Source of the DNA: a virus
Taxonomy: Duplodnaviria; Heunggongvirae; Uroviricota; Caudoviricetes
Length of the DNA stretch: 51,515 nt
Reading direction: 5' to 3' (one strand)
IMG/VR virus record: IMGVR_UViG_2681813321_000027
The notes beneath the pieces were generated by a model. That model saw nothing but the letters and a program-made list of their open reading frames with translations, did not search any database and was not told the origin of the DNA. Positions 11,515-46,660 of this stretch are shown here, piece by piece. The stretch's first letter is position 1, and every line of letters starts with the position of its first letter. Made by a program: the position numbers and the translations under genes.

Positions 11515-13229
11515 CAGAACTCCATAACCGTGAAACGCTCGTTTTCTCCTTCGCCGCCAATCGGTTCGTTAATGACAGCAAGCATGGTTGCCCACGCAAG
11601 GTCGCCGTGGCTGATCCCCCTCGCGCGGTCCGTTTCGTAAGTGATAAAGCCGCCCGGTGTTTTCACCTTACGCACGGCGTTAAAGGCCGCGACCAGCTCG
11701 CGTTCGGCGCGATCGTATTCCCACCGCCCGGCACGCATTATTTGCAGCATTTTCAGTACCAGCGACCGTTTTGATGACAGCGTGAAGGTGTACGGAATAG
11801 CAGCAGGGAAAAACCGTTTCACTATCTGATAAACAGCCTCCCCGTTCCCGCCCGTCACATCAATGCCGATGTGTTCCACGTTGTAGCGATACGTGAACTC
11901 TTCAATGACTCTGGCCTGTTCTTCAAACTCCAGCCCCTGAACGCGTCTCGTCTCCACCGTTCGAAAACGGCCACCAGGAACAGCCGGAGGAACCACCACG
12001 GACACAGCGCCGCTGTCGCCGTTGCCACTGCTGCCGTTTGCGTCATACCCAATCCATACCGGACGATTCCCCATCGGGCGGGGAGCAAAAGGTTTCCAGT
12101 CTTTCCAGTCGTCGTATCCGTCAACACCGCAGCCAATCAGGATATTCAGGTTAAATGCCGATTCCCCTTCGCGGACAAACTCACACATATAGAGATTGAG
12201 GAACTCGTCTTCGGTGTTTTCATCACGAATTTCGTCGATATCGGTGTGTTTCCAGCCGTGATTAACCACATCTTCCAGCGTGACAATTTGCCGCCACGTC
12301 CGGTCAGGGCAGATAAGCCCGTTATGCAGCGTTTTCCAGTCCACAGAAAAACGCTGGCGTTTATGCGAGGCCTTTTTCTCGTTCCAGCGGTCGCCGTTCC
12401 AGTAGGCGTATGCCTCGTGCGTTTCGGTGGATGGCGTGGAGAAGTAGGTGCGTCGCAGCCCGCTGAGGGTTGCCATAGCGCCAGCCACCTTGCGCAGTTC
12501 AGCAAAGCGACTGACCCAGAAAAATTCATCAAAATAAAAATTGCCCGTATAGGACTGTGCCGTCGCAGCAGAAGTACCGAGAAAATGCAGTTCTGCGCCG
12601 TTGGAGAGGATGATTTTATCGCCCCCTTTCAGCTCCACATCAACTTCAGCCGCGGCCTTCTGAATAATGCTTTTAAACTGGAACGCCTGACGACGCGACG
12701 CAGACAAAAAAATCTGGTTACGCTGGTAAGGTTGTGCCACATCGTCACGCAGCGCCATCAGCAGTGCTTCCTGTGCAAAATACCAGGTCGCCCCAATCTG
12801 TCGGGATTTCAGGATCATCCTGTTACGTATCCCGGCTTCACTGCAAAGGGTCAGGGAGTCAAACCAGCCCCGCTGATGCCACTCCAGCCTGCTGATGATT
12901 TTTTCCCGCAGTGCGGCAATCTGTTCCGGCGTGAAATGATTTTTGAGTTTTTTCGCCCGGCCTTTCTTTCCTGCGGCCGTCACATCCGGCTGGCCATCAT
13001 GCAGCTTTTTAAGCTGCCGGGTCAGCAGGTCTATTTCCTTAAAGTCACCACCTGTTTTATTCTGTTTTTCAGTAAGCTGGATGAGACGCGCATCGATGGA
13101 CTGCGTGACACGCTGCACGGGTGGCGTTTCATCCCACTGGTCGCGTTTTTTCCACGCATAAATCGTGTTCGGGTTTATTCCCATCAGACGTGATATTTCT
13201 GCGGGCGGATAACCCTGCCAGTAAAGTTG
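11514..13229 (-). pseudogene. P: terminase ATPase subunit gpP, 5'-truncated at junction J1
   Basis: matches full P copies from about residue 13 onward; upstream part of the 605-aa track ORF is antisense A sequence. Confidence 0.7.
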
Positions 13230-13231
13230 AC
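13229..13231. other. junction J1: P 5' region / orphan A / internal A (= 6240)
   Basis: ...gtaaagttg + a + ccgcaaaaaactg...; compared with intact copies at 20220 and 6240. Confidence 0.85.
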
Positions 13232-14821
13232 CGCAAAAAACTGAACCGCGACGGCCTGCGCTGGTATGGCATCCGCACGGTGGAGCCTCACCATGACGGC
13301 ACTGTGCACTGGCATATGATGGTCTTTGCACATCCGGACGAGATTGAAACCATCGTGTCCCACGTCTGCGATATTGCCATTCAGGAGGGCCGCCACGAGC
13401 TGGGCGATGACATAACTCCGCGTTTTAAGGCGGAGTATGTCGACGGCTCAAAAGGCACACCAACCAGCTACATCGCCACCTACATCGGAAAGAACCTGGA
13501 CAGCCGCGCCGTGGATGGCATCGACCCGAAAACGGGCAAGCCACGCGTTGACCACGAAACCGGAAAATCAATGGCCGAGAGCGTGGAGCGCGCCATCGGC
13601 TGGGCGCGCCTTCACCGGGTCCGTCAGTTCCAGTTCTTTGGCATCCCCTCCCGTCAGGTGTGGCGTGAACTGCGCCGCCTTGCCAGCCAGATGGCACGCA
13701 ATCCGGAAGGCCCGCAACGGCTGAAAGATGATGCAATGGATGCGGTACTCGCTGCCGCCGATGCCGGGTGTTTTGCCACCTACATTGAAAAACAGGGTGG
13801 CGTGCTTGTTCCACGCAAGGACTACCTGATTCGCACCGCCTACGACCTCGCAGATGAGCTGAACGATTACGGCGAACAGAGCGTACAGATTTACGGGATC
13901 TGGTCACCACTCATCGGGGAATCCTCCCGTGTGTGCACGCATCCGGATAACTGGAAGCTGGTAAGACGTAAACCAGAACCGGAAGACAACGCCCACGAAA
14001 ATGGTTTTGACCTTCAGGGCGGCCCTGCCGCCCCTTGGACTCGTGGCAATAACTGTCCCCGTGTACAGGAAACGGACGACAACGGGACAGAACAGCCGGA
14101 AGAACGGCCAGCACCGTGGCCGCAGCTCCCTGACGGCGTTGAAGTGAACGAATGGATGCGCTCACTGAAACGGCACGAACGCCGGGCGCTGATGCGTTCG
14201 CTTCGTGACAAACAGGCAAAAAACAGCAGTGATGAAATGCAGAGCTGGACACAGAGCCGCAAACAGCAGCGGCCTTTGCCTGATAACCACGAATTACTCG
14301 CTAAAGAATGGCGGGAGTCTGCTGAATCTCTCGGCCTGCATATCGGTGAACAGCAGATGCAGCACCTGTTACGGGGCGGCAGCCTGTACGTTGACGGCAG
14401 CATCATTGCACCGCAGGGATTTGAAATTGTACGCAAACCGGATACCCGACCGGACAGCCGGATCACGCAGCTCTGGCAGCGCCTGAGCCGTAACCACGGC
14501 GTAAGCAGTACGGAGATCCGCCATAACCCGGTCGCCAGCTATCTGGAACAGCTGGGGGCATCAGACCCCGAAGCCGCCGCACGCCTGGCATCCACACTTC
14601 AGCAGGACCAGAACACCATGAAAACACCCGTTACCGTGCTTTCTGACATGCTGCGCGCCATCCGCGACGCAGAGCACGCACAGAGAATCAGTGAAACCAC
14701 TGAACGCGCCCGCCGCAAAGCAGACCTGCTGCGGGGTAGCCTGACCAGTGGAAACAAAAAACAGACAGAAAAGGGATTCACAAATCCCGTAAATGAGCAA
14801 AAAACGCGCCGCGATATATGA
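13231..14821 (+). pseudogene. A: 3' fragment of A (about residues 412-940), no start
   Basis: identical to 6240-7830. Confidence 0.8.
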
Positions 14822-14897
14822 AGCGCGCATAAAACAGGCAAAAACGGGATTTCAGAATCCCGTAAACGATTAATTAATCAACATAAGGAAAAGCGAC

Positions 14898-15857
14898 ATG
14901 AAAATTTGTATCGATGACGGCTCCACCAACATCAAGCTGGCATGGACTGAGAAGGGCGAACGCCGCAACGCCATCAGCCCAAACAGCTTCAAGTCGGAAT
15001 GGTCTGCGCCGTTCGGTGGCACGCAGCCCGCGAACTACATGCTTGATGGCGTGCGCTATGGTTTTGATCCGGTCAGCGATCGCTTTGTCCAGACGACCGA
15101 CACGCAATACCAGTACAGCGATGTGAATGTCATTGCCATTCATCACGCGCTGGTCAAATCAGGCATCACACCACAGGAAGTGGATGTGGTTGTCACCCTG
15201 CCACTGAGCGAATATTTCGACACAAACGCACAGCCGGACATGGCCAACATCAATCGCAAAAAAGCAAACGTCATGCGCCCGGTGGCGTACCAGAACGGAA
15301 AAGCATTCACTATCCGTAACGTACGGGTTATGCCTGAATCCATTCCGGCTGGTTTTAAAGCACTGGCTGACATGAGTCCGTTTGAATCCCTGCTGATTGT
15401 GGATTTAGGCGGAACCACGCTGGATGTGGCAAAGGTTCAGGGACAACTGGCAGGTATCAGCCAGGTGTTTTGCGATCCACACGTAGGCGTTTCCCTGATG
15501 GCCGATGCCGTACTGTCGGTGATGGCCACTAACGGTATGCGTACCAGTCACCACATCGCCAATACCATTATCGAACATCGCCATGATGAAGCCTGGCTGC
15601 GCCAGCACATCCACAATGACGCGCATTACGCCAGCCTGATGGCGGTTATTCGTGAAAAGGAAGAAACACTGAAACAACGCGTGTTCCGCGCGCTGGCGGG
15701 TTTTTCGGGTTACGGGCGGGTGATGGTTGTCGGTGGCGGGGCGGAGATTGTGGCACCCGCTATCCGCGAAGCCTGCGGAGTTAATGCGACTTTCATCGCG
15801 GACGGGGTGCCACAGTTTGCTCTGGTTAATGGGCTGTACGCAATGGACAAGGAGTAA
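14898..15857 (+). CDS. parM: ParM-like ATPase, copy 2
   Basis: identical protein, offset +6991. Confidence 0.8.
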   Translation: MKICIDDGSTNIKLAWTEKGERRNAISPNSFKSEWSAPFGGTQPANYMLDGVRYGFDPVSDRFVQTTDTQYQYSDVNVIAIHHALVKSGITPQEVDVVVTLPLSEYFDTNAQPDMANINRKKANVMRPVAYQNGKAFTIRNVRVMPESIPAGFKALADMSPFESLLIVDLGGTTLDVAKVQGQLAGISQVFCDPHVGVSLMADAVLSVMATNGMRTSHHIANTIIEHRHDEAWLRQHIHNDAHYASLMAVIREKEETLKQRVFRALAGFSGYGRVMVVGGGAEIVAPAIREACGVNATFIADGVPQFALVNGLYAMDKE

Positions 15858-15861
15858 ACCA

Positions 15862-16173
15862 ATGACGACACCAACCAGACGGATAAGTTTCTATCTGAAG
15901 CCCGCCGCCGTCAAGAACGAAGGCGAAGCATGCGCCTGGCTGGACAGCCTTACACCAGAAGCCCGCAAAAGTGGTCAACGCGTGGCTTTTCTGGCCGGGC
16001 TGGCACTACTGAAAATGAATCCGGCAGAGGCTTACCGACTGGCTGCATGGGCTGATGATGAGGCGTTATCAGTGACACAAACCAGGACAGAACGCCCCGC
16101 GTCACAGCCAGTACCAACCGCACAGATAACCAGTCAGATGGCCGGAAATATCCGGGCGTTATTTCCCGAATAA
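15862..16173 (+). CDS. parR: ParR-like, copy 2
   Basis: offset +6991. Confidence 0.5.
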   Translation: MTTPTRRISFYLKPAAVKNEGEACAWLDSLTPEARKSGQRVAFLAGLALLKMNPAEAYRLAAWADDEALSVTQTRTERPASQPVPTAQITSQMAGNIRALFPE

Positions 16174-16236
16174 CACAACATCAGGGCGCATCCGCCCTGA
16201 TGACTTTAACCCGGGAGCATAAACAAGGGGGACACA

Positions 16237-16569
16237 ATGCAATACATTGACAGAGAAAAAGCGCAGCGACTGATTGAGCGGATGGAAGCGCTGGCGAAAG
16301 AAGAAAATGTCAACATCCAAAAAATAGCTGAATGTGGCCAGATAGTTCTTCGTCGTGAAAAAGACCTCAAACAACTGATGTCTGGCGAAACCAGCAAAAC
16401 ATGGACTTCAGGCGAGAAGACGGTTTATTGCAGTTTCTGCAATAAATCCCAGTACGAAGTCACAAAGGTGATTGCCGGACCGTCTGTTTACATCTGCAAT
16501 GAGTGTGTGGATTTGTGCAATGAAATTATCAGGAAAGAAGTGACAGACAAAAAGGAAAAAAACGCATGA
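16237..16569 (+). CDS. ClpX ZBD homolog, copy 2
   Basis: offset +6991. Confidence 0.7.
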
Positions 16570-16973
16570 ACAGAAAACAGAAACAAGAGTTGAAATACTT
16601 CTTACGTAAAGAAATTGCCAGGCTTGAAGATGCAGAGTCACAATCATCAGAAATTCCGTTCGGAATGGATATCAACGACGCCCGTATGCTTCAGGCATAC
16701 CGTATAGCTCAGGCTGCACTACAGACAAAACCGTTAAATAACATACATGAAAAGTATGATTATTTTACGGATACCGCTTGCTTGCTGACATCTGAAGAAC
16801 AAAAGATAGCCCAACTTTTAGGCGACGCATGGAACCTGTATTTAACATTGCCAGTTGAGCATCCAATGGGTAGAGATGAATTTTGCCGGGCAATTCATCA
16901 TTGCCAAAATATGGTGTTGGCACGCCCGGCCATCAGGGCGCTGGCCAGGAAGGGGCAAGGCTATAAAAGATAA
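16566..16973 (+). CDS. hypothetical 135-aa protein, copy 2
   Basis: offset +6991. Confidence 0.5.
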
Positions 16974-17458
16974 GTAAAACGCCCTCCTCCAGGGCGTTTA
17001 TTTCAATGCACAATAGTGCACAAATTTGCACAATTTTTTTGAACGACTGTTTACCCTTCCAGCCCGTATAGCGGCTGGATCCGTCAAGGATCCGTGCGTG
17101 CACAAAAAAACGCGCTTTTTCTGCGCGCAGGTGACGGGGGAACAGCCCGCGTTTCAGGGGGTAAATAGCATTCCCTGAACGATGTCGCAGAGACACAACA
17201 GAATGGCTGTATTTCTCACTCTGAGCGTGAAAAATACGTGAGGGATTCTGATTTGATGGGGTGAAAGGTAAGGCCGTCAAAATCGCACTGAGGCGGCGAA
17301 GAACATGCAGTCAACGCGGTGGGATTGCGTAAGAGTCTGACTGTCGATGATGGCAATCAGCAGGAAAGCGTCGTGAAATTATCTGACTGATACAGGAGCT
17401 GGAGAGTCGGGGCATAAATTTTTTATGCCCCGGCGAAGCAGCAGACAAGCGAAGCGCG

Positions 17459-18505
17459 TCAGGATGTGGGCTGGGTGTCTAACAGTGCGTAAGGGTTAAA
17501 GCGGATCACCTCTTCGCCAAGCCAGTCATTGATGTGCTTCATGGCCTCCATGACGGGCATCAGCTCGTTAATTGCGTAAACCCGCGCGGCCTTCTCCACA
17601 TCACCAAACGCACTTTTTTCACCCGGCATCGCCCCCATAAGTTGCGGCGGAACGCGGTGCGCAGCCAGCACATCATCACGGGATGCCGCCTTAACATTCA
17701 TGAACTCATCCTTTGCGGTGATCTGCTGGAACGGCAAAATTTGCACCCCCTCTTTGCCCCCGTTGGGCGCATGAATGAGCACGTTTTTAAACGCACCGCC
17801 ACCACGTGCACCCTGTAGCGTTTCTTTCAGGGAGTCCATGCTTTCGCGGTTTACCTGCGCTGCACCGATGTAGATGATGCACCCGGCGTGGGATCCGTTG
17901 TCGTAATACAGTTTTCTGAACATGTCCGCCGAATGAGACAGGCTGGCCGAGAGTAATGCGCCGAGATATTCCGGCATGCCGTAGATTTCCTGGTTAATGT
18001 CAGGATTCATCAGGTGGCACACTTTGCCAGGGCGAAACTGGAACGCATCCTTGCCATCCTGCACATACCACCATGATTCAAGATCGCTACCGCGTCGCAT
18101 GTATTTCGCCAGGGCGTGCCGTAATTTAAGCGGTTCGCCGAGCATATTGCTTCGAAGCTCAAGGAATGCGTTACCGAACACAAACCAGTCCAGCGCCAGC
18201 GCCGAGAAATCCTGCCGGGAAAGCAGCGGGTGCGGGATGTAGCAACCGAGTAATACATTGCGCTTAAAGTAAAGCGCAGACTGATGCCAGGACGTTTGCC
18301 GGGCAGCTCTTGCCAGACCGTACCAGTCCACCGGGGTTTCATACCACCGCCCGTTATCAGCACAGTACATATTGTCCAGCAGGTCATGCCCGGTCAGGCG
18401 ATAAGGACCATCAAATGTGAATGCACTGAGCGACGATTCTTTCCTGAGCGCATCAGCGAGATCAATGCGTGAACTCATGCGCACTTTTTTATTTTTTCTG
18501 CTCAT
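17459..18505 (-). CDS. Q: portal gpQ, copy 2
   Basis: identical protein. Confidence 0.85.
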   Translation of the reverse strand: MSRKNKKVRMSSRIDLADALRKESSLSAFTFDGPYRLTGHDLLDNMYCADNGRWYETPVDWYGLARAARQTSWHQSALYFKRNVLLGCYIPHPLLSRQDFSALALDWFVFGNAFLELRSNMLGEPLKLRHALAKYMRRGSDLESWWYVQDGKDAFQFRPGKVCHLMNPDINQEIYGMPEYLGALLSASLSHSADMFRKLYYDNGSHAGCIIYIGAAQVNRESMDSLKETLQGARGGGAFKNVLIHAPNGGKEGVQILPFQQITAKDEFMNVKAASRDDVLAAHRVPPQLMGAMPGEKSAFGDVEKAARVYAINELMPVMEAMKHINDWLGEEVIRFNPYALLDTQPTS

Positions 18506-20256
18506 CAGAACTCCATAACCGTGAAACGCTCGTTTTCTCCTTCGCCGCCAATCGGTTCGTTAATGACAGCAAGCATGGTTGCCCACGCAAGGTCGCCGTG
18601 GCTGATCCCCCTCGCGCGGTCCGTTTCGTAAGTGATAAAGCCGCCCGGTGTTTTCACCTTACGCACGGCGTTAAAGGCCGCGACCAGCTCGCGTTCGGCG
18701 CGATCGTATTCCCACCGCCCGGCACGCATTATTTGCAGCATTTTCAGTACCAGCGACCGTTTTGATGACAGCGTGAAGGTGTACGGAATAGCAGCAGGGA
18801 AAAACCGTTTCACTATCTGATAAACAGCCTCCCCGTTCCCGCCCGTCACATCAATGCCGATGTGTTCCACGTTGTAGCGATACGTGAACTCTTCAATGAC
18901 TCTGGCCTGTTCTTCAAACTCCAGCCCCTGAACGCGTCTCGTCTCCACCGTTCGAAAACGGCCACCAGGAACAGCCGGAGGAACCACCACGGACACAGCG
19001 CCGCTGTCGCCGTTGCCACTGCTGCCGTTTGCGTCATACCCAATCCATACCGGACGATTCCCCATCGGGCGGGGAGCAAAAGGTTTCCAGTCTTTCCAGT
19101 CGTCGTATCCGTCAACACCGCAGCCAATCAGGATATTCAGGTTAAATGCCGATTCCCCTTCGCGGACAAACTCACACATATAGAGATTGAGGAACTCGTC
19201 TTCGGTGTTTTCATCACGAATTTCGTCGATATCGGTGTGTTTCCAGCCGTGATTAACCACATCTTCCAGCGTGACAATTTGCCGCCACGTCCGGTCAGGG
19301 CAGATAAGCCCGTTATGCAGCGTTTTCCAGTCCACAGAAAAACGCTGGCGTTTATGCGAGGCCTTTTTCTCGTTCCAGCGGTCGCCGTTCCAGTAGGCGT
19401 ATGCCTCGTGCGTTTCGGTGGATGGCGTGGAGAAGTAGGTGCGTCGCAGCCCGCTGAGGGTTGCCATAGCGCCAGCCACCTTGCGCAGTTCAGCAAAGCG
19501 ACTGACCCAGAAAAATTCATCAAAATAAAAATTGCCCGTATAGGACTGTGCCGTCGCAGCAGAAGTACCGAGAAAATGCAGTTCTGCGCCGTTGGAGAGG
19601 ATGATTTTATCGCCCCCTTTCAGCTCCACATCAACTTCAGCCGCGGCCTTCTGAATAATGCTTTTAAACTGGAACGCCTGACGACGCGACGCAGACAAAA
19701 AAATCTGGTTACGCTGGTAAGGTTGTGCCACATCGTCACGCAGCGCCATCAGCAGTGCTTCCTGTGCAAAATACCAGGTCGCCCCAATCTGTCGGGATTT
19801 CAGGATCATCCTGTTACGTATCCCGGCTTCACTGCAAAGGGTCAGGGAGTCAAACCAGCCCCGCTGATGCCACTCCAGCCTGCTGATGATTTTTTCCCGC
19901 AGTGCGGCAATCTGTTCCGGCGTGAAATGATTTTTGAGTTTTTTCGCCCGGCCTTTCTTTCCTGCGGCCGTCACATCCGGCTGGCCATCATGCAGCTTTT
20001 TAAGCTGCCGGGTCAGCAGGTCTATTTCCTTAAAGTCACCACCTGTTTTATTCTGTTTTTCAGTAAGCTGGATGAGACGCGCATCGATGGACTGCGTGAC
20101 ACGCTGCACGGGTGGCGTTTCATCCCACTGGTCGCGTTTTTTCCACGCATAAATCGTGTTCGGGTTTATTCCCATCAGACGTGATATTTCTGCGGGCGGA
20201 TAACCCTGCCAGTAAAGTTGTCGCGCACGCTGGCGTACAAAAGCGTCCTGAATCAT
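18505..20256 (-). CDS. P: terminase ATPase subunit gpP (full length, 583 aa)
   Basis: large conserved ORF divergent from O, overlapping Q start. Confidence 0.85.
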   Translation of the reverse strand: MIQDAFVRQRARQLYWQGYPPAEISRLMGINPNTIYAWKKRDQWDETPPVQRVTQSIDARLIQLTEKQNKTGGDFKEIDLLTRQLKKLHDGQPDVTAAGKKGRAKKLKNHFTPEQIAALREKIISRLEWHQRGWFDSLTLCSEAGIRNRMILKSRQIGATWYFAQEALLMALRDDVAQPYQRNQIFLSASRRQAFQFKSIIQKAAAEVDVELKGGDKIILSNGAELHFLGTSAATAQSYTGNFYFDEFFWVSRFAELRKVAGAMATLSGLRRTYFSTPSTETHEAYAYWNGDRWNEKKASHKRQRFSVDWKTLHNGLICPDRTWRQIVTLEDVVNHGWKHTDIDEIRDENTEDEFLNLYMCEFVREGESAFNLNILIGCGVDGYDDWKDWKPFAPRPMGNRPVWIGYDANGSSGNGDSGAVSVVVPPAVPGGRFRTVETRRVQGLEFEEQARVIEEFTYRYNVEHIGIDVTGGNGEAVYQIVKRFFPAAIPYTFTLSSKRSLVLKMLQIMRAGRWEYDRAERELVAAFNAVRKVKTPGGFITYETDRARGISHGDLAWATMLAVINEPIGGEGENERFTVMEF

Positions 20257-20410
20257 TGCTCCCCCTGAGTAATTACAGGAAGATTACCCGCGCGCGAAAC
20301 CGTTCTCCTTAACCCCCTGTTCTGGCCGTTTTCTTACAACAAAAGCCCTTTGTATCAGCCTGTTACGCTTTGCCATCATGACTGAAGAACCAGTCAGAGG
20401 GGCAAAAACT
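20257..20410. promoter_or_regulatory. divergent late promoter region (P leftward, O rightward)
   Basis: 154-bp gap between divergent P and O; TGT...ACA dyad candidates; copies at 28773-28926 and 36658-36811. Confidence 0.4.
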
Positions 20411-21247: not shown

Positions 21248-21270
21248 TAAGACAAAGGAGCAAATTTTTT

Positions 21271-37648: not shown

Positions 37649-37671
37649 TAAGACAAAGGAGCAAATTTTTT

Positions 37672-38724
37672 ATGAATCTGGTGATGTCAGATATTACCCG
37701 CAACAAGCTGGGTTGCTATATGGCGCAGCAGGCGTCGCTTAACAATATCCCGGTTTCCGCACTGGTATCGCGATTTACCGTGGAACCCTCGGTACAGCAG
37801 CGTTTTGAAAACGCCTCAAAGGAAAGCACCGAATTTACAAAAAGAATTAACGTGATCGGCGTGACCGACCAGAAAGGCGAAAAAATCCTCCTGGACACCA
37901 CCGGGCCAATTGCACGCACGAATACCAGTTATGACGGCACAAAACGCCGTAACCCGAATAACGTGGTTGATCTGAAAAACCGCAAATACCAGTGCGAACA
38001 GGTGAACTACGACACGTTTATTTCATATCCGCAGCTTGATGCCTGGGCGGCACATCCTGATTTTCAGTCCCGCATCAGCGCACAGATTGCCCGACAGGTG
38101 GCGCTTGACCGCATCATGATCGGTTTCAACGGCACGTCTCACGCGGATGAGTCCAACTTCAGCACCAACAAGCTGCTTCAGGACGTTAACGTGGGCTGGC
38201 TGGAGCACATCAGAACCGACGCCAGCGAGCGCGTTATGAATGACGTAACGCTGACCTCCCGCAACATGGACAACACCGTGGCGCACGCGGGTAAGTATGC
38301 GAACGCTGATGCACTGGTACAGGACGCACGCTCATCCCTGCTGGATGAATGGCACAAGGAAGCTGACGACCTCGTGGTGATTATGGGGCGCAACCTGTTT
38401 AACTCGCTGCGTCTGCCCGTGCTGAACAGTATCAGCGGCCAGAATCCCAATGCGGAATTACTTGCCGGGCAGCTCATCCTGTCATCGCGCACCATTGGCG
38501 GGCTGGGCGTGTTCCTTGCGCCGTTCTTCCCGGATGCAACGATGCTGATCACCTCGTTCAACAACCTGTCGATTTACTGGCAGAAAGGTTCAATGCGTCG
38601 TCTGATGAAAGACGAACCGGAATACAACCGCATCGCCACCTACCAGTCCATCAATGACGCTTATGTCGTTGAAGACTATGGCAAGTGCGCGATGGTCACT
38701 GGCCTGAAGTTCGCCGACAGCTAA
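37672..38724 (+). CDS. N: major capsid gpN, copy 3
   Basis: identical. Confidence 0.9.
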   Translation: MNLVMSDITRNKLGCYMAQQASLNNIPVSALVSRFTVEPSVQQRFENASKESTEFTKRINVIGVTDQKGEKILLDTTGPIARTNTSYDGTKRRNPNNVVDLKNRKYQCEQVNYDTFISYPQLDAWAAHPDFQSRISAQIARQVALDRIMIGFNGTSHADESNFSTNKLLQDVNVGWLEHIRTDASERVMNDVTLTSRNMDNTVAHAGKYANADALVQDARSSLLDEWHKEADDLVVIMGRNLFNSLRLPVLNSISGQNPNAELLAGQLILSSRTIGGLGVFLAPFFPDATMLITSFNNLSIYWQKGSMRRLMKDEPEYNRIATYQSINDAYVVEDYGKCAMVTGLKFADS

Positions 38725-38769
38725 TCAACTCACGGCGGGCATCATGCCCGCCTGTAACGGAGAGAAAAA

Positions 38770-39570
38770 ATGATTACTCCTGCACAGCAACACTGGCAGA
38801 ACGTGATGGCACAGCGCGCAGGCCGGGCGAATGAAGGCGTGGACCACGCCGCGCGTACCGCGCATGAAGAGGTGCTGTATCGTCTGCGTCTGGCACAGGC
38901 CCGGCTTAAGGGCGTACAGGCCAGAAGCGCGAAAGCCGCCATCAAAAAAGAGTTATTGCCGGACTTTTCCGGCTGGATTGAGGGAACGCTGGAGGCTGAC
39001 GGCGGGCAGCAGGATGAAGTGATTGCCACGCTGATGGTGTGGGCGATTGACTGCGGCGATCTTCCGCTGGCGCTGCGTATTGGTGCATATGTGGTCCGTC
39101 ACAACCTCATCATGCCGGATAACTTTGGCCGTACTGCTGCCACGGTACTGACCGAAGAAATCTGTAATCCGGTACTGACGCAGGCCGGGACGGATGCCGA
39201 CGCGGATTTGTCCGCCTTTATCGAACCACTGGACACCCTCCGGGAGATTGTCACCGACCAGGACATGCCGGACGAAGTGCGCGCCAAATTATGCAAAGCG
39301 TGCGCCTTTGCCCGCCGTGGCCTGACCGATGCGGACAGCATGGCCTCATCACTGAAGCTGCTGCGCGAAGCGATGCACCTGAACCCGAACGCAGGTGTGA
39401 AACGCGAGATTGCAACCCTTTCCCGCGCCCTGAAAAAAGCCGATTCCGCAGCCGCACCAGAAGATGCCAGCACACCGCAGGCGCAGGACGAAAGCAGCAA
39501 AAGTAAAAAGACAACGCGCAAGCCTGCAACACGAAAAACCACCGCGACGCAGAAGGCGAAGCGCGGTTAA
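38770..39570 (+). CDS. M: terminase small subunit (P2 gpM family), full length
   Basis: 266 aa; RBS ggagag; basic KKTTRKPATRKTT C-terminus; position O-N-M-L. Confidence 0.8.
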   Translation: MITPAQQHWQNVMAQRAGRANEGVDHAARTAHEEVLYRLRLAQARLKGVQARSAKAAIKKELLPDFSGWIEGTLEADGGQQDEVIATLMVWAIDCGDLPLALRIGAYVVRHNLIMPDNFGRTAATVLTEEICNPVLTQAGTDADADLSAFIEPLDTLREIVTDQDMPDEVRAKLCKACAFARRGLTDADSMASSLKLLREAMHLNPNAGVKREIATLSRALKKADSAAAPEDASTPQAQDESSKSKKTTRKPATRKTTATQKAKRG

Positions 39571-39585
39571 CGACTGACCCCGTCA

Positions 39586-39658
39586 GCGGGCGGCGTGCGC
39601 GGTGTTCCGGTTTGACTCCGTGACCGTTTACACCGCGCACCCACCGCCCGATTTTTTC
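39586..39658 (+). terminator. long-stem hairpin plus T-run after M
   Basis: gggcggcgtgcgcggtg ... caccgcgcacccaccgccc inverted repeat followed by gattttttc. Confidence 0.45.
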
Positions 39659-39671
39659 AGGAGTGAACCCC

Positions 39672-40166
39672 ATGAGTATGGTTGCCAGAACCAACCCCGG
39701 ACCCGCAGAGGACGACATCACCGATACCGATGATGGTGATACCCGTATTTCAGCGGGCGCATTCTGGCCGGATATTGTGCTGCGTGAGCTGCGTCTGGCG
39801 ATACGACTGCCGGGCCGTGTAACCACCTCCCGCCTGCTGCATACCGCCACCGGGGCCGTGGCACACGTTACCCGCGAGCTGAAAGCGTGGCAGCAGGAAC
39901 AGCAGGCGGCTGGCCATCAGACGCTGTCCGATGTTCCGGCACCCGTAATTAACGGAGAAAGCGTCAATCTCTGGCACTGGCGCAATGCCGTTTATACCGC
40001 CACACGCGCCCTGATTCTGGAGCGTTACCGCGATGCGGACACAACGGATAAGGGCGACCGCCGGGCGGACGCACTGGATATACAGACATCGGATTTGTGG
40101 CGCGATGTGAGCTGGGCCATCTCTGACATTCTGTGCCGCCCGCGAATCTTTGCGGAGTTGTGCTGA
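39672..40166 (+). CDS. L: head completion/stabilisation protein (P2 gpL family)
   Basis: 164 aa from ATG 39672 with aggag RBS; DLWRDVxWAI C-terminal motif as in P2 L. Confidence 0.8.
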   Translation: MSMVARTNPGPAEDDITDTDDGDTRISAGAFWPDIVLRELRLAIRLPGRVTTSRLLHTATGAVAHVTRELKAWQQEQQAAGHQTLSDVPAPVINGESVNLWHWRNAVYTATRALILERYRDADTTDKGDRRADALDIQTSDLWRDVSWAISDILCRPRIFAELC

Positions 40167-40366
40167 TGAAAGTGAAGGCACTGGAAGGCGACACCGTGGA
40201 TTCGCTCTGTTTCCGGTACTACGGCACGACGCAGGGCGTCACCGAAAAGGTGCTGGATGCCAACCCCGGACTCTGTCAGCAGGTATTTCTGGACGCCGGG
40301 CAGGAAGTGGAGATGCCGGAGCCGGAGAAGAAGAAACGAGAAATGATTCAGTTGTGGGGGGAGTAG
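40166..40366 (+). CDS. X: tail protein X (P2 gpX family)
   Basis: 66 aa; LxGDTxDxxCxRYYG and NPGL motifs match P2 gpX. Confidence 0.8.
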   Translation: MKVKALEGDTVDSLCFRYYGTTQGVTEKVLDANPGLCQQVFLDAGQEVEMPEPEKKKREMIQLWGE

Positions 40367-40368
40367 CA

Positions 40369-40692
40369 GTGAGCACCATTCAAACAGGGATCACAGAGCA
40401 GGTTATTGCGTGGCTCTTTGACCACCTGCCAACGGTGTATGCAGTAGGCGCGGCGGTCAGCATTTCCGCGCTGATGAGTCTTTATGACGGACGAACACTG
40501 GTTCAGACCGTAACGGGATCGCTGGCGTGCGGCGTTCTTGCCATGGCCGTGGCCGGGTCGTTGCGCTTCTTCGGTTTTCCTGAAGATGCCGTGACGTTTA
40601 TCGGCGCATCAATCGGTTTTATGGGGGCAGAGAAAGCACGCGACAAGGTTATTGCGGCCTTTAATCGCAGGGTGAAGGAGAAAGACGAATGA
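40369..40692 (+). CDS. holin (putative)
   Basis: 107 aa from GTG 40369 with gggggag RBS; 2-3 hydrophobic helices, charged C-terminus; just upstream of endolysin. Confidence 0.6.
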   Translation: MSTIQTGITEQVIAWLFDHLPTVYAVGAAVSISALMSLYDGRTLVQTVTGSLACGVLAMAVAGSLRFFGFPEDAVTFIGASIGFMGAEKARDKVIAAFNRRVKEKDE

Positions 40693-41081
40693 GCAACACA
40701 TTTAAATTCAGCAGCCGGAGCGAAAAGAATTTGCAGGGCGTAAATCCTGATCTGGTGAAAGTGACCCGACGGGCACTGGAAATCTCGGAAGTGGATTTTG
40801 GTATCACCGAAGGGTTGCGCAGCCGTTACCGCCAGAAGCAACTTGTGGCCACGGGTAAGAGCCAGACCATGAACAGCCGCCACCTTACGGGGCATGCCGT
40901 GGATGTTGTGGCTTATATCGGCAGCCAGGTGTCATGGGAATGGCCGCTGTACGAAAAAATCGCAGCAGCATTCAGACAGGCCAGCCGGGAACTGAATATT
41001 CCGGTGGAATGGGGCGGCGACTGGAAGACCCTGAAAGACGGACCGCATTTTCAGTTACCACACGGAGCCTGTCCGGCATGA
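40689..41081 (+). CDS. endolysin, peptidase M15 (L-alanyl-D-glutamate peptidase-like)
   Basis: 130 aa; SRHLxGHAVDV zinc-binding signature; sits between holin and spanins. Confidence 0.7.
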   Translation: MSNTFKFSSRSEKNLQGVNPDLVKVTRRALEISEVDFGITEGLRSRYRQKQLVATGKSQTMNSRHLTGHAVDVVAYIGSQVSWEWPLYEKIAAAFRQASRELNIPVEWGGDWKTLKDGPHFQLPHGACPA

Positions 41082-41485
41082 AGCTCTGGCCCACGCTGGG
41101 TGTCGCTTTCCTTCTGATTGCCGCATGGGGAACATCCATGCGTCTGTCATGGTCGCTGGGCCGGGAGAACGCCAGAAACGAAGCACAGGCCAGCACCCTG
41201 AAAAGTACCGCCGACACCCTGAATATTATCAGCGCTGGGGTACAGGATATGCAGCAGGTGCTGGCGCAACTCCGCGTGGAAAATCAGCAACGCAATCAGG
41301 ACGGAGAGGTAAGACGTGAACAGCTACGCAACGATATTGCAAAAGATGAATGCGCCCACGCTTTGCCTGACGCTCGTTTTACTGACAGGCTGCGCAGGCA
41401 CGCAGAACGCGCCACGGCCAGCGCCGTCAGTCCGGCTTATACCGCAGACGCTGACCATACCGGTAACGCCTCCCCCCTTCCCTGA
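41078..41485 (+). CDS. i-spanin (Rz/LysB-like)
   Basis: 135 aa; N-terminal TM LWPTLGVAFLLIAAWG then coiled-coil-like charged region; ATGA overlap with endolysin stop. Confidence 0.6.
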   Translation: MKLWPTLGVAFLLIAAWGTSMRLSWSLGRENARNEAQASTLKSTADTLNIISAGVQDMQQVLAQLRVENQQRNQDGEVRREQLRNDIAKDECAHALPDARFTDRLRRHAERATASAVSPAYTADADHTGNASPLP

Positions 41486-41636
41486 TACTCCCACATGGGG
41501 AAATCTCGGTATATGGGGCGACCGCCTTCTGGATGCACTGGAAACCTGTAACGCGGATAAACGGGCCATTGAATTACTGGAACAGCGCAGGCTGCAACGA
41601 CTGAACAACGAGGATAACAACCATGCTGAAAACTGA
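41346..41636 (+). CDS. o-spanin lipoprotein (Rz1/LysC-like)
   Basis: lipobox LLTGC, proline-rich; starts inside i-spanin in another frame and extends past it. Confidence 0.55.
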   Translation: MNAPTLCLTLVLLTGCAGTQNAPRPAPSVRLIPQTLTIPVTPPPFPDTPTWGNLGIWGDRLLDALETCNADKRAIELLEQRRLQRLNNEDNNHAEN

Positions 41637-42090
41637 TTCCCTGCGTGAAGCCATGACCCGTTCATGCCGATGGTGTCAGGCCAACCCGGAAAAATTCACC
41701 ATTTTCGTGGAGAGCGGCAACATTGAAACGACCGGAGAAACCCCATCGTTTGTTTACCGCTATCAGATGGTGATGTTTGTCATGGATTACGCCGGGGAGC
41801 TGGACGACCTCACGCTGCCGCTGCTGGCGTGGTTATCCAAAAATCAGCCACAGTTGTTGCTCAACCCTGAGCGTAATCAGGACATCAAATTCTCCGCCGT
41901 TATTAATGACGATGACAGCGCCGATCTCCTGTTTACGCTCCCCCTGCGGGAACGCGTTCGCATCACGCGCAGCAGTCAGGGCACACCGCAGGCAGAACAC
42001 CTGCCGGAGCCAAAACCCCGCCTGCCATCTTCCGAAGGCGACTGGTCGCATGTATTCCAGGATGTGACGTGGGGTGAAAGCGATGGATAA
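41623..42090 (+). CDS. R: tail completion protein (P2 gpR family)
   Basis: 155 aa; MLKxDSLR N-terminus and length match P2 gpR. Confidence 0.8.
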   Translation: MLKTDSLREAMTRSCRWCQANPEKFTIFVESGNIETTGETPSFVYRYQMVMFVMDYAGELDDLTLPLLAWLSKNQPQLLLNPERNQDIKFSAVINDDDSADLLFTLPLRERVRITRSSQGTPQAEHLPEPKPRLPSSEGDWSHVFQDVTWGESDG

Positions 42091-42718
42091 GGCATTCACC
42101 CGCGTGGATGAAACCTTTGAGGCCATCCGCGACAGCCTGAATCAGCAGGCCATCAATAACATCGCCAGAAAGCTGGCACAGAATTTACGCCGCGCCCAGC
42201 AGGCGCGTATCCGGTCACAGAAAGCGCCGGACGGGACCGCGTGGACACCACGCAGACGCCGCGTAACCCGGATACAGGAACGCATTCGCTTTATCTGGAA
42301 TAACGAAGCACGCACGCTGAAAAACTGGCATCACGACACGGGGAAATACGGGCGAACCATCACCGGGTGGGATGAGGATAAAAACAACATCCGCACGTTT
42401 TACCGGGATGACATCGACCGCTTTCTGGAAATACGCACCCGGCGCATCAACCAGGACAGCACAAAGCGCGTCCCCATGTTCGTAAAACTGCGCACCGCCC
42501 GCTACCTGAAAGCCCGTGCGGATACTTCCGGTGTGACGGTGGGTTACAGCGGCGTGGCTGCACGTATTGCACGCGTTCATCAGTTCGGTGAGCGCGATCA
42601 GGTTGCGCCGGGCATTTTCACCGATTACCCGGTACGTGAGCTGTTGGGCATCAGTCAGGCAGATGAACGCCTGATTTATAACACGGTGCTGGGCCGGATT
42701 GCGGAGGCTGTACGGTGA
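42083..42718 (+). CDS. S: tail completion protein (P2 gpS family, putative)
   Basis: ATG 42083 overlaps R stop; assignment by synteny. Confidence 0.6.
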   Translation: MDKAFTRVDETFEAIRDSLNQQAINNIARKLAQNLRRAQQARIRSQKAPDGTAWTPRRRRVTRIQERIRFIWNNEARTLKNWHHDTGKYGRTITGWDEDKNNIRTFYRDDIDRFLEIRTRRINQDSTKRVPMFVKLRTARYLKARADTSGVTVGYSGVAARIARVHQFGERDQVAPGIFTDYPVRELLGISQADERLIYNTVLGRIAEAVR

Positions 42719-43296
42719 GCGCAGAACTCATGCGACTGCTGAGCAATATCATCCGCACCGGGATCATCTCTGAAGTTGATGAGAAGTCCTGGCGCGTGCG
42801 CGTTCGCAGCGGCGAACTGGAGACAGGCTGGTTGCGCTGGAACACCACGCGCGCGGGAGCCTTCAATGTGTGGCTGCCGCCATCACCAGGCGAACAGGTG
42901 GTAATTGCCTGCATTGGCGGCAACCCGGAAACCGCCATGATAATTGGCAGCCTGTGGAGTGATGCCAATCCGGCCCCCGGCAAAAGCCTGAAAGAAATCG
43001 TGATCAGCGCGCCGGACGGCGCGGTGTTCCGCTACGACGCGGACGCAGGCGCACTGAGCGCCAGCGGCATGAAAACGGCCACTTTACAGGCATCCGTCAG
43101 CGTGACACTGGACACGCCCGTCGTGGAATGCACAAACCTTCTGAGAACGGCGACGCTTGACGTCACAAAAGGGGGAAAGATGAGCGGCAATATCACGCAC
43201 AGCGGCGGCGATTTCACCTCAAACGGCATTACCGTGCATACGCATAAACACGGTGGCGTGAAAGGCGGCAGCGATTCGACAGGAGGCCCGCATTGA
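42715..43296 (+). CDS. V: baseplate spike/assembly protein (P2 gpV family)
   Basis: 193 aa, GTG start overlapping S stop; position before W. Confidence 0.75.
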   Translation: MSAELMRLLSNIIRTGIISEVDEKSWRVRVRSGELETGWLRWNTTRAGAFNVWLPPSPGEQVVIACIGGNPETAMIIGSLWSDANPAPGKSLKEIVISAPDGAVFRYDADAGALSASGMKTATLQASVSVTLDTPVVECTNLLRTATLDVTKGGKMSGNITHSGGDFTSNGITVHTHKHGGVKGGSDSTGGPH

Positions 43297-43643
43297 CAAC
43301 CCGCTACACAGGAATGAATCCGGACGGGACGGGAAACCTGAACGATATGGAGCACCTGAAACAGTCAGTCAGGGATATCCTGACCACCCCGCTGGCAAGC
43401 CGGGTTATGCGACGGGAATATGGCAGCCTTGTGCCTGATTTGATTGACGAACCCATGAATAACACCACGCGTCTGCAATGCATGAGTGCTGCCGTGATTG
43501 CGCTGACACGATGGGAACCCCGCATTGCCCTGGATGCCATCGACGTTGTCTGGAAAGCGGGAGGCCGCGCCGGGGTGACGCTGTCGGGCACTGTCATGCA
43601 GACCATGCAGAATGTTGAGTTAACCATCACGCTGAGGGAGTAA
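43293..43643 (+). CDS. W: baseplate protein (P2 gpW family)
   Basis: 116 aa, TTG start with aggagg RBS. Confidence 0.75.
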   Translation: MTTRYTGMNPDGTGNLNDMEHLKQSVRDILTTPLASRVMRREYGSLVPDLIDEPMNNTTRLQCMSAAVIALTRWEPRIALDAIDVVWKAGGRAGVTLSGTVMQTMQNVELTITLRE

Positions 43644-43646
43644 ATC

Positions 43647-44543
43647 ATGCCCGCCGTTGACCTTTCCCAATTACCGGAACCCGCCATCATCGCGGAGCCT
43701 GACTTTGAGGCAATTCTGGCTGACACAAAGGCCATGATGATTGCGGCTTATCCCGCCGAACAGCGTGAAGCCGTCTCCGCCGCGCTGGAGCTGGAATCGG
43801 AACCCCTGAACGTTATCGCCCAGACAACAGCGTTTCGTGAAATGCTGTTACGCCAGCGGGTCAATGAGGGGGCACGCGCCTGCATGTTAAGCCACAGCGC
43901 CGGGACAGACCTGGACAACCTCGCGGGCAATATGAACACAAAGCGCCTGACCATCACTCCGGCAACGGATACCACCGACGCAGTGATGGAAAGTGACACC
44001 TCGCTGAGACTGCGGGCGCAGCGGGCGTACGATGGCCTGAGTGTTGCTGGCCCGTCAGGTGCATACGAGTATTTTGCCCGCAGCGCCAGCGGTCTGGTGC
44101 GTGATGCGCGGGCTATCAGTCCGTCTCCGGCAAATGTGACGGTTTCCATCCTGTCCACTGAAGGCGACGGCACAGCAACGGAGGCGTTGCTTAATACCGT
44201 TCGCGCCGTTCTGAATGCAGAGGATACCCGCCCGGTGGCCGACCGCCTGACCGTACAGAGTGCCAGAATCGTGACATGGCGGCTGAATGCAAAACTGTAC
44301 TTTTACCCCGGCCCGGAATCCGAACCTATTCTGGCCGCGGCGGAATCGTCATTCAGGAAGTGGCTGGCTGAACAGGGGCTTATCGGTCAGGACGTGGCGT
44401 TGTCCGCCATTGCTGCCGCACTGCATGTGCACGGTGTGCAACGCGTGGAGATAATCGAACCCACACAGAATATGGCCATCAGCGACATACAGGCGGCGCG
44501 CTGTGAGTCATTCACCATCAGCGAAGGTGGACGCAATGAGTAA
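43647..44543 (+). CDS. J: baseplate protein (P2 gpJ family)
   Basis: 298 aa; size and order match P2 J. Confidence 0.8.
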   Translation: MPAVDLSQLPEPAIIAEPDFEAILADTKAMMIAAYPAEQREAVSAALELESEPLNVIAQTTAFREMLLRQRVNEGARACMLSHSAGTDLDNLAGNMNTKRLTITPATDTTDAVMESDTSLRLRAQRAYDGLSVAGPSGAYEYFARSASGLVRDARAISPSPANVTVSILSTEGDGTATEALLNTVRAVLNAEDTRPVADRLTVQSARIVTWRLNAKLYFYPGPESEPILAAAESSFRKWLAEQGLIGQDVALSAIAAALHVHGVQRVEIIEPTQNMAISDIQAARCESFTISEGGRNE

Positions 44544-45144
44544 TTCGTTGTTACCACCATCAGCCAGCAATTTCATGCGTTGTGCCGAAGCCGTCGGAAC
44601 ACGCATTACAGACATTCCGGTGGACCTCAACACGCTGTGGTCGCCGGACACCTGCCCGGTGCATCTGCTGCCTTATCTCGCCTGGGCGTTTTCCGTTGAC
44701 CGCTGGGATCGCAACTGGCCGGAAGAGACAAAGCGACAGGTGATTCGTGATGCATGGCTGATACACCGACACAAAGGGACCATCAGCGCACTGCGAAGAG
44801 CCGTGGAGCCTCTCGGCTACCTGATTGAAGTAAAGGAGTGGTGGCAACTCAACGAGGAGCCAGGAACATTTCGCATTGTTGTCGGAGTACTTGATCAGGG
44901 CATCACCGATGAAATGTATCAGGAACTTGAGCGCCTTATTGCGGATGCAAAACCAGTAAGTCGCCATCTGACGGGGCTGGCGATCAGCCTGAGTGTGAAC
45001 GGAAAGATTTTCGTTGGTACGGGATGCTATCACGGCGATGCCCTGACGGTTTATCCCTACACCCCGGAGTCCATTATTGTCGAAGGGGATTATTTCCCTG
45101 CCCCGGCCATTCATTTAATTGATAATCTGAGAGTAAACGCATGA
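44536..45144 (+). CDS. I: baseplate/tail protein (P2 gpI family)
   Basis: ATG 44536 overlaps J stop; about 202 aa. Confidence 0.7.
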   Translation: MSNSLLPPSASNFMRCAEAVGTRITDIPVDLNTLWSPDTCPVHLLPYLAWAFSVDRWDRNWPEETKRQVIRDAWLIHRHKGTISALRRAVEPLGYLIEVKEWWQLNEEPGTFRIVVGVLDQGITDEMYQELERLIADAKPVSRHLTGLAISLSVNGKIFVGTGCYHGDALTVYPYTPESIIVEGDYFPAPAIHLIDNLRVNA

Positions 45145-46658
45145 CAGTGAAATACTACGCCATTCTGACTAATCAGGGCGCGGCACGACTGGCTAACGCG
45201 ACGATGCTCGGCAGTAAGCTGGATCTGACGCAAATGGCCGTTGGTGATGCAAATGGTGTGTTACCAACACCAGACCCTGCACAAACAAAACTGATTAACC
45301 AGAAACGCATTGCACCGCTGAATCTTCTGAGTGTTGACCCTAACAATCAGAGCCAGATTATTGCGGAGCAAATCATCCCTGAAAACGAGGGAGGATTCTG
45401 GATCCGTGAGATTGGTCTTTATGATGATGAAGGTGTACTCATTGCGGTGGCAAACTGCCCGGAAACGTACAAACCGCAGTTGCAGGAAGGCAGTGGACGC
45501 ACCCAGACTATCCGCATGATTCTGGTTGTCACGAACACCGAAGCCATCACGCTGAAAATCGACCCGTCTGTGGTTCTGGCAACCCGCAAATATGTGGATG
45601 ATAAAATCTCAGAGCACGAACAGTCACGACGTCACCCGGACGCCTCGCTGACCGTAAAAGGTTTTACTCAGTTAAGCAGTGCAATTAACAGTGAATCAGA
45701 AACACTGGCCGCAACACCGAAAGCGGTTAAGGCTGCATATGACCTGGCTAACGAGAAATATACCGCCCAGAACGCCACCACTACACAAAAAGGGATTGTT
45801 CAGCTCAGTAGCGCCACGAACAGCACGTCTGAAACACTGGCAGCGACACCAAAAGCTGTTAAGGCGGTAATGGATGAAACGAACAAGAAAGCACCATTAA
45901 ACAGCCCGGCACTGACCGGAACGCCAACAACACCAACAGCGCCACAGGGGACTAATAGTACCCAGATCGCAAGCACGGCTTTCGTTATGGCCGCGATTGC
46001 CGCACTTGTAGATTCGTCACCTGATGCACTGAACACGCTGAACGAACTGGCTGCGGCGCTGGGCAATGACCCGAATTTTGCGACCACCATGACTAACGCG
46101 CTTGCGGGTAAGCAACCGAAGGATGCCACCCTGACGGCGCTGGCAGAGCTTGCTACATCAGCAGATAAACTCCCATATTTTACAGGGGCAGATCGTGCCG
46201 CGTTAACCGCGTTGACAAGTGTTGGACGTGCCATTCTTGGTAAAACCAGCACTCAGGGAGTTCTTGATTACCTTGGTTTGGGAGAAGGCTCTGCATTACC
46301 GGTTGGGGTGCCTGTTCCGTGGCCTTCAGCCACTCCGCCAACAGGCTGGCTGAAATGCAACGGTGCCGCTTTTTCTGCTGAAGAATACCCGGAACTGGCA
46401 AAGGCTTATCCGACAAATAAATTGCCTGATTTACGCGGTGAGTTTATTAGGGGCTGGGATGACGGGCGTGGTATTGATGCTGTACGTGCCTTGCTAAGTC
46501 TTCAGAATGGAGGAGTGGAATCACACACCCACCAAGGGCAGCTCTTCAGAGTTAGTGATTATCGTACAAAAGAAATACCAGCATCAGAAGTTATGGGAAG
46601 AGGATATATTGCAAGCCTGACGCCGGGTCCTGATAGCCCACTTGATTTTGATGATTAT
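45141..46658 (+). pseudogene. H: tail fiber gpH, first about 506 codons; fused at J4 to the 3' end of S
   Basis: identical to the full H copy up to DFDDY; track ORF 45141-46943 ends with the S C-terminus. Confidence 0.8.
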
Positions 46659-46660
46659 AG
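46658..46660. other. junction J4: H / orphan A / internal S (= 42435)
   Basis: ...gatgattat + a + gcacccggcgcatcaacc... Confidence 0.85.

Follow-up and report, generated by a model that had tools for sequence, protein, structure and literature searches.

There are five overlapping stretches of a single P2-like phage genome in the 51,515-nucleotide DNA analysed here (the window), and the question is how they came to follow one another with a single A at each of the four joins. The initial annotation, made from the letters alone, attributed this X + A + Y arrangement to the ligation of dA-tailed fragments or to an engineered concatenation. We conclude, with a probability of roughly 93%, that the window is the end of a draft contig within a P88-like prophage, wherein the junctions are single-N scaffold joins, the segments (tiles) are redundant contigs, and the array as a whole is an assembly artefact. 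It records neither a biological nor a ligation event and is not a real feature.

The starts and ends of the tiles were mapped by self-BLAST and exact-word mapping of the window (Table 1). These searches confirmed five collinear segments on one strand and in native order, with four junctions that each hold a single A. Both the starts and the ends of the tiles rise monotonically in native coordinates, and adjacent tiles are redundant copies that overlap by 4.2-8.5 kb. At J1 to J4, the base that natively follows the left-hand sequence (X) is T, G, C and C, and the base that natively precedes the right-hand sequence (Y) is T, T, C and C. Because these neighbours all differ from A, the junction base is foreign to both parents and direct microhomology is lacking, as had been proposed. 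The genes named at the four junctions were likewise correctly assigned, judging by Pfam. When the repeats are collapsed, the remaining 23,898 nucleotides run collinear to those of a sister prophage, which bears out the earlier claim that removing the repeats restores a normal P2-like gene order.

Table 1. Tiles, junctions, allele patches and artefactual reading frames, in window coordinates unless a record locus (L) is given.
Feature	Position	Strand	Description
S0	1..13229	+	Left part of prophage: int, C, cox, early genes, A, parM module, Q, most of P
S1	13231..22559	+	Native 6240 (mid-A) to native 15568 (in M)
S2	22561..31267	+	Native 7054 (in A) to native 15760 (in M)
S3	31269..46658	+	Native 7877 (just upstream of parM) to native 23266 (in H)
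S4	46660..51515	+	Native 19043 (in S) to contig end
J1	13230	.	P 5' end (X) // mid-A (Y); N in record, A in window
J2	22560	.	M // A; N in record, A in window
J3	31268	.	M // spacer just upstream of parM; N in record, A in window
J4	46659	.	H // S; N in record, A in window
J1 N in record loci	L002:862 and L014:18223
J2 N in record locus	L002:10192
J3 N in record locus	L002:18900
J4 N in record locus	L007:14586
S1 private patch	17342..17477	.	7 SNPs in 136 bp, contiguous haplotype-B run
S2 private patch	26308..26605	.	11 SNPs in 298 bp, portal gene, haplotype-B alleles
S3 private patch	35845..36478	.	9 SNPs in 634 bp, terminase-large gene, haplotype-B alleles
Further S3 variant patch, against sister prophage	41805..42241	.	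8 SNPs in 437 bp, single-copy part
S3 versus S4 difference patch	45754..45836	.	3 transitions; S4 has sister (haplotype-A) allele
Terminase-large P, 5'-truncated, artefactual	11514..13184	-	556 aa in record, 583 aa native
M-A fusion ORF, in-frame, artefactual	22369..23337	+	In nr as CTT22460.1, 'phage replication protein'
Truncated M, artefactual	30885..31274	+	129 aa; deposited as CTT22674.1
H-S fusion ORF, in-frame, artefactual	45141..46943	+	600 aa

The decisive evidence comes from the deposited sequence. The window corresponds to the 3'-terminal 51,515 bases of the Escherichia coli draft contig CYBF01000001.1 (GCA_001285025.1), and its last base is record position 280924, which is also the contig end. 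Three record loci together span the whole window (L014 covering 1-17830, L002 covering 12369-33337 and L007 covering 32074-51515). Window and record differ only at the four junctions, which lie at record positions 242639, 251969, 260677 and 276068 and are each an N in the record, and across 56.5 kb of the record N occurs at exactly these four joins and nowhere else. Thus, the four A's are single-N scaffold gaps that have been rendered as A in the window data set. Since the record has N at all four positions, and since these are the only differences between the two sequences, the joins are computational scaffold joins. The dA-tailing proposal relied on a real A and falls with it, while the suspicion of an artefact that accompanied it was right. 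A literature search on the CYBF01, CYAN01 and GCA accessions returned nothing relevant and no citing paper.

The junctions do not recur in separately assembled genomes that are closely related. The sister assembly CYAN01000002.1 carries the same prophage at the same site and has the native order across the positions of J1 to J3; a related isolate, assembled independently in Logan, has the native order too. None of the four junctions occurs in any of 5,426 complete E. coli genomes, in which each junction half on its own is found about 1,170-1,400 times. A 34-mer across J1 that included the A had no match in viral, genome and metagenome contig collections, a search that is uninformative because the record has N at that position and because this E. 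coli assembly is not the species representative. The sister assembly also has a single-N join of its own, with a 5.7-kb restart, at another place. There, the two tiles end in opposite orientations of an invertible tail-fibre segment. In the window, the end of S3 in gene H lies 207 nucleotides inside the inverted-repeat region of the tail-fibre segment.

The copies in different tiles are identical apart from private clusters of SNPs, with one clustered patch per tile. These patches are contiguous allele runs of a widespread second P2-like haplotype (haplotype B), and each is bordered on both sides by about 3.3-5.1 kb of the dominant haplotype A. S0 is haplotype A throughout, with two mismatches against the sister prophage (L013; 99.98% identity). 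Many other E. coli genomes have prophages that match the S1 patch at 100% identity. Transitions account for 26 of the 30 changes in the patches, and nearly all changes are synonymous in the portal gene of S2 (11 of 11) and in the terminase-large gene of S3 (8 of 9). Sequencing error was rejected as the source of these differences, given SNPs that are clustered, free of indels, mostly synonymous transitions and known as alleles in other genomes. DGR-like mutagenesis was also rejected, as the changes are not A-specific. A metagenome contig (L019) that encodes the S3-type terminase protein is only 98.5% identical at the nucleotide level and lacks the S3 mosaic, so that the comparison is uninformative. 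A point against the scaffolding account given below is that S3 holds three B-like patches in one tile, for which the contig must have been longer at the outset or some merges must have succeeded.

A further signature lies at the tile ends, six of eight of which coincide exactly with a word, 10 or more nucleotides long, that the phage contains more than once. Against a background rate of 0.087 per end, this gives a binomial p of about 1e-5; the two exceptions are the ends X1 and X4. The pattern suggests that the ends were set by software and not by DNA breakage. We sought a GapFiller rule that halts extension at a recurring 10-mer and derived none. In addition, a perfect 10-nucleotide inverted repeat flanks J2 (AGTTATTGCC / GGCAATAACT), and the Y side of J3 begins exactly on the 12-nucleotide palindrome GATTAATTAATC. 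The word-bound ends, the J2 inverted repeat, the private SNP clusters and the N's of the record were all absent from the initial annotation.

A likely sequence of events is the following. The source is an E. coli isolate with a scaffolded draft contig of Illumina type, built from reads that would have carried the dominant haplotype A together with minority alleles of haplotype B. The latter probably was a minority, as is needed for extension along haplotype A, and its alleles might stem from another prophage, from a sub-population or from reads carried over. Near J4, the invertible tail-fibre segment may have contributed additional heterogeneity. Read pairs would have linked short minor-allele contigs in genome order with estimated gaps of zero or negative length. 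An iterative gap filler would then have pushed both edges of each false gap several kilobases along the majority haplotype. Such gaps would be unclosable, since the length filled in did not fit the estimated gap, and one N would be left in each. The outcome would be X + N + Y with 4.2-8.5 kb duplicated on either side, and presumably no read spans a junction.

The known behaviour of one program is compatible with these steps. GapFiller closes a gap when the edges overlap by at least 10 nucleotides and the size matches within 50 nucleotides, and otherwise continues to extend; its authors note that edge extension inflates assemblies (PMC3446322). In a widely used pipeline, 16 rounds of SSPACE are followed by 120 GapFiller iterations and contigs are renamed by size (PMC5320598). 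Flanks of 3.3-5.9 kb would equal 28-49 nucleotides per GapFiller iteration. Other negative-gap or unclosable scaffold joins, as left by SSPACE followed by GapFiller or IMAGE, share with the window a single N, redundant flanks, and genome order and orientation. They also share ends set by a word-length threshold and joins that fall at read heterogeneity, whether allelic patches or an invertible segment. Compared with typical joins of this kind, the overlaps in the window are unusually long and require very many extension rounds. The circumstantial evidence thus points to a pipeline of the Velvet, SSPACE and 120 x GapFiller type, and the attribution to SSPACE and GapFiller is to be read accordingly.

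The same class of artefact might also have arisen through other software. Contigs from several assemblies or haplotypes could have been ordered on a reference, in the manner of ABACAS or scaffold-builder, and concatenated with a single N wherever an overlap could not be merged. We regard this as unlikely, though deserving of consideration. Tiles whose starts and ends are strictly sorted on one strand are just what sorting by reference start would yield, and single-N joins are present. However, reference-ordering alone leaves unexplained why each tile has a short minor-allele patch centred in majority sequence and why tile ends coincide with words of at least 10 nucleotides. Moreover, the record contains a product name with '%2C' and has size-ordered contig numbers, which instead fit a Prokka/SSPACE/GapFiller production pipeline.

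Processes acting on DNA fare much worse. A real, staggered partial tandem amplification in the prophage, with the N's as unresolved single bases at true junctions, would account for direct and collinear segments and for the two in-frame fusion ORFs, and the differing allele patches of the copies could in principle be gene-conversion tracts. It is nevertheless very improbable, given N's that fall exactly and solely at the joins, a sister prophage and complete genomes that lack the junctions, and a sister assembly that repeats the single-N-and-restart pattern at a different place. The four junctions are also all different and each has an undefined base, in place of the recurrent defined junction of amplified units, and the combination of unlike junctions without microhomology and recurring 10-mer ends again suggests software. 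Equally far-fetched is the more specific version in which A-to-M and S-to-H amplification was staggered and the copies received separate gene-conversion tracts from a co-resident P2-like prophage. Perhaps only the allele patches are real, reflecting a pair of almost identical prophages in one host or a sub-population that recombines; this is more likely than the amplification version and, if true, would be of little interest. Concatemers formed at cos and tandem polylysogeny predict full-length units bounded by cos or att, whereas the observed units are partial, with boundaries that cut P, A, M, H and S or fall in the spacer immediately before parM. The initial annotation was right to set aside both cos-based concatemers and recombination-driven amplification. 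A physical chimera of dA-tailed fragments, or an engineered concatenation, is hardly credible. Exactly one extra A, found in neither parent, does stand at every junction of the window, but the deposited base is N, and two dA-tailed ends cannot be ligated to each other. Random ligation should also give random order and orientation, whereas the five fragments here all point the same way, which has a chance of 1 in 16, and follow one another by start coordinate, and neither tile ends on recurring words nor a minor-allele patch in mid-segment would be expected. The resemblance to chimeras from A-tailed library ligation is thus a superficial one, confined to how X + A + Y looks in the window, from which the different alleles of the tiles, the N and the non-random order all depart. 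A synthetic or planted construct was likewise set aside, since the sequence comes from a public NCBI record.

Read as unclosed scaffold gaps, the array has no biological significance, and its value is that of a data-quality warning. An N of a source record can appear as A in this data set, and anyone who meets a lone, apparently non-templated A at a breakpoint should look at the record before interpreting it. Production draft assemblies can surround a single-N gap with multi-kilobase redundant tiles, above all in prophages whose reads differ in alleles or in the orientation of an invertible segment. In the present case, the tiles inflate the prophage from 23.9 kb (collapsed) to 51.5 kb and mimic a tandem amplification.

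The underlying prophage is an ordinary one. Its gene order is int-C-cox-...-A-parM-...-Q-P-O-N-M-L-X-holin-lysis-R-S-V-W-J-I-H, and the Pfam families found are GPA, portal, Terminase_6, GPO, cap_P2, term_smal, GPL, tail_X, GpR, tail_S, base_V, GPW, Baseplate_J, Tail_P2_I and tail fibre. S3 is 96.7% identical to Escherichia phage P88 over 92% of its length. By gene set, gene order and nucleotide identity to P88, it belongs among the P2-like (P88-like Xuanwuvirus) prophages of the Peduoviridae, and its collapsed form does not stand out from them. Position 1 of the window is the integrase stop codon, and the host genes accD-dedA-truA-usg-pdxB lie upstream of it. The integration site adjoins pdxB, as it does in E. 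coli WS3294A and ATCC 43896. We considered WS3294A as the native reference or source and rejected it, as it is 99.8% identical over the left 6.2 kb but 95-97% identical elsewhere. The end of the contig cuts the prophage off in the tail-fibre region. PADLOC gave no match among the ORFs of the parM module and cargo.

Exact look-ups of the fusion proteins behave as expected for N. The N at J2 occupies the third position of a CCN codon and so leaves the M-A fusion protein unchanged, and this protein was found by exact look-up. The N at J4 takes the first position of its codon, and this accounts for the failure of an exact look-up to return the H-S fusion protein. Through this artefact, chimeric proteins such as the M-A fusion have entered the public databases.

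The array of four junctions (J1 to J4) is not a real feature of the phage. An exact-protein look-up of the M-A fusion open reading frame (ORF) identified the source as contig CYBF01000001.1 (280,924 bp) of NCBI assembly GCA_001285025.1, three loci of which cover the whole window (L014, 1-17830; L002, 12369-33337; L007, 32074-51515). There are exactly four differences between window and record, and they fall on the four junctions, where an N in the record corresponds to an A in the window. Thus, the "orphan A" is a single-N gap character that was changed to A somewhere between record and window. The outcomes of the look-ups fit this assignment: at J2 the N occupies the third position of a proline codon (CCN), which left the M-A fusion findable, and at J4 it occupies the first position of a codon, which is why an exact sequence look-up gave no match for the H-S fusion. 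The N is preserved in loci retrieved from the record, whereas the window shows A; a lone "non-templated A" in any window of this data set may likewise stand for a gap. The right end of the window is the contig end, and position 1 is the integrase stop codon, with the host genes accD-dedA-truA-usg-pdxB upstream.

The initial annotation described the window itself accurately. Five collinear same-strand segments (tiles S0 to S4) and their repeat structure are recovered by self-BLAST and exact-word mapping, and gene calls agree with the labels it gave to all four junctions. Native tile starts rise monotonically (6240, 7054, 7877, 19043), as do native tile ends (13229, 15568, 15760, 23266). Removal of the repeats restores the normal order as claimed, giving a collapsed sequence of 23,898 nt that is collinear with the sister prophage in CYAN01000002.1. 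The native bases that follow X, the tile end before a junction, and precede Y, the tile start after it, are listed in the table, and thus the reported presence of an A in neither parent, with no direct microhomology, holds within the window.

Coordinates of tiles, junctions and associated features (window positions; segments from self-BLAST and exact-word mapping, junction genes from gene calls)
Feature	Position	Strand	Detail
S0	1-13229	+	
S1	13231-22559	+	restart at sequence of 6240
S2	22561-31267	+	restart at 7054
S3	31269-46658	+	restart at 7877
S4	46660-51515	+	restart at 42435
J1	13230		5' end of terminase-large P to mid-A; record N 242639; X next T, Y previous T
J2	22560		M to A; record N 251969; X next G, Y previous T
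J3	31268		M to spacer immediately before parM; record N 260677; X next C, Y previous C
J4	46659		tail-fibre H to S; record N 276068; X next C, Y previous C
Y1	13231-13241		3' arm of 11-bp hairpin
X2 / Y2	22550-22559 / 22561-22570		perfect 10-nt reverse complements of each other
X3	31258-31267		10-nt direct repeat
Y3	31269-31280		12-nt palindrome
Y4	46660-46669		10-nt direct repeat
S1 patch	17342-17477		7 SNPs in 136 bp
S2 patch	26308-26605		11 SNPs in 298 bp
S3 patch	35845-36478		9 SNPs in 634 bp
S3 further patch	41805-42241		8 SNPs relative to sister prophage; single-copy part, lysis/R region
S3 further patch	45754-45836		relative to sister or to S4
Join-made fusion or truncated ORFs	22369-23337; 30885-31274; 45141-46943; 11514-13184		annotated, deposited
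Gene A hairpin	6225-6250		perfect 11-bp stem, GTTTTTTGCGG cggt CCGCAAAAAAC
A-parM spacer	7851-7888		terminator-like hairpin, then 12-nt palindrome GATTAATTAATC
A-to-Q interval	7907-9982		copies 14898-16973, 23414-25489, 31299-33374

The four joins are without support elsewhere. Across 5,426 complete E. coli genomes no junction was found, while each junction half is present in about 1,170-1,400 of these genomes. The prophage also lies at this chromosomal site in a sister assembly from the same accession series (GCA_001285125.1, contig CYAN01000002.1), where it matches S0 at 99.98% identity and keeps plain native order through the J1-J3 positions. A related isolate, in an independent Logan assembly, likewise shows native order.

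At six of the eight tile ends, the boundary coincides exactly with a word of 10 nt or more (10-12 nt) that occurs again in the collapsed phage. The chance of this at a random position is 0.087, giving p = 1e-5 for six or more of eight, and the restart point in the sister assembly also coincides with such a word, exactly 10 nt long. Breakage and ligation would be indifferent to 10-mers separated by kilobases and found on either strand; the pattern is software-like and suggests an algorithm whose threshold is 10 nt. The suspicion of an artefact was justified, but the physical mechanism proposed for it, the joining of dA-tailed fragments, was wrong, since the junction base is N in the record. The defining features of a dA-tail ligation product, a cos concatemer, a polylysogen and an amplification were each looked for and not found, and all four are rejected. 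The palindrome GATTAATTAATC between A and parM might be an operator or parC-like site.

Tile copies differ by one private clustered patch in each of S1, S2 and S3; elsewhere, as many as four copies agree at every base, with zero indels. The differences are natural alleles rather than noise: 26 of the 30 changes are transitions, those in the portal gene (11/11) and the terminase gene (8/9) are synonymous, and the S1 patch is 100% identical to prophages of many other genomes. Alignment with three other prophages shows that each patch is a contiguous run of widespread alleles (haplotype B), which differ from the dominant alleles of the isolate (haplotype A) at about 55 sites in 2.85 kb. Each tile therefore consists of a short B run with 3.3-5.1 kb of haplotype A on either side. 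Evidently the reads held a minority of a second P2-like sequence, possibly from a second prophage, a sub-population or carry-over. The single-copy part of the scaffold, with its SNP cluster in S3, may itself be a mosaic of the two haplotypes.

GapFiller lengthens the two sides of a scaffold gap through overlapping k-mers, and closure needs an extension overlap of at least 10 nt and an inserted length within 50 nt of the estimate; otherwise the gap passes to the next iteration (PMC3446322). One widely used production pipeline runs Velvet, 16 rounds of SSPACE and 120 iterations of GapFiller, and then sorts and renames contigs by size (PMC5320598). We infer that a Velvet/SSPACE/GapFiller-type scheme is the likely mechanism. 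Read pairs would join short haplotype-B contigs to adjacent contigs in genome order, and every false gap would then be lengthened from both sides along the majority haplotype; over 120 rounds, flanks of 3.3-5.9 kb would correspond to 28-49 nt per round. Because the length test would fail, the gap could never be closed and one N would be left at the join. Circumstantial support for such a pipeline comes from the ENA-assigned WGS prefix, from contigs that appear to be numbered by size, and from the deposited product name "Phage terminase%2C endonuclease small subunit M", as Prokka output converted from GFF to EMBL typically carries such a URL-escaped comma. Another program for ordering and concatenating contigs may instead have made the joins. 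A literature search found no papers citing the accessions.

The cause of J4 is related to that of the other joins and involves the invertible tail-fibre segment, since S3 ends 207 nt into its inverted-repeat region. A separate single-N join occurs in the sister assembly at L005:12377, with a 5.7-kb restart, and the tiles flanking it end in opposite orientations of this segment, so that culture contained the segment in both inversion states. The inverted match there (L005 11312-12376 versus 18725-19789, about 1.06 kb, 99.5%) is the invertible segment, which adjoins a resolvase-type invertase.

The case carries practical warnings about N rendered as A, about draft assemblies that contain redundant tiles, and about chimeric proteins that have entered nr. 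Two such entries, a minor pollution of the database, are CTT22460.1, the M-A chimera labelled "phage replication protein", and CTT22674.1, a truncated M.

The underlying biology is that of an ordinary P88-like prophage adjoining pdxB, a Xuanwuvirus of E. coli (96.7% identity over 92% of S3); a location beside pdxB is also seen in E. coli WS3294A and ATCC 43896. Relatives have a hok/gef-type toxin gene directly after ogr at the right prophage end (L003 21051-21191, L001 37455-37595), and this region is absent from the window because the contig stops in the tail-fibre genes. The A-to-Q interval, which is the position of tin/old in P2, encodes a ParM/StbA-type actin-like ATPase, a Plasmid_stab_B protein, a 110-aa ClpX-type zinc-finger protein and a family-less 135-aa protein; PADLOC gave zero hits on this cargo. 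The relatives differ here, with three other genes in ATCC 43896 and an 89-aa ORF in WS3294A.
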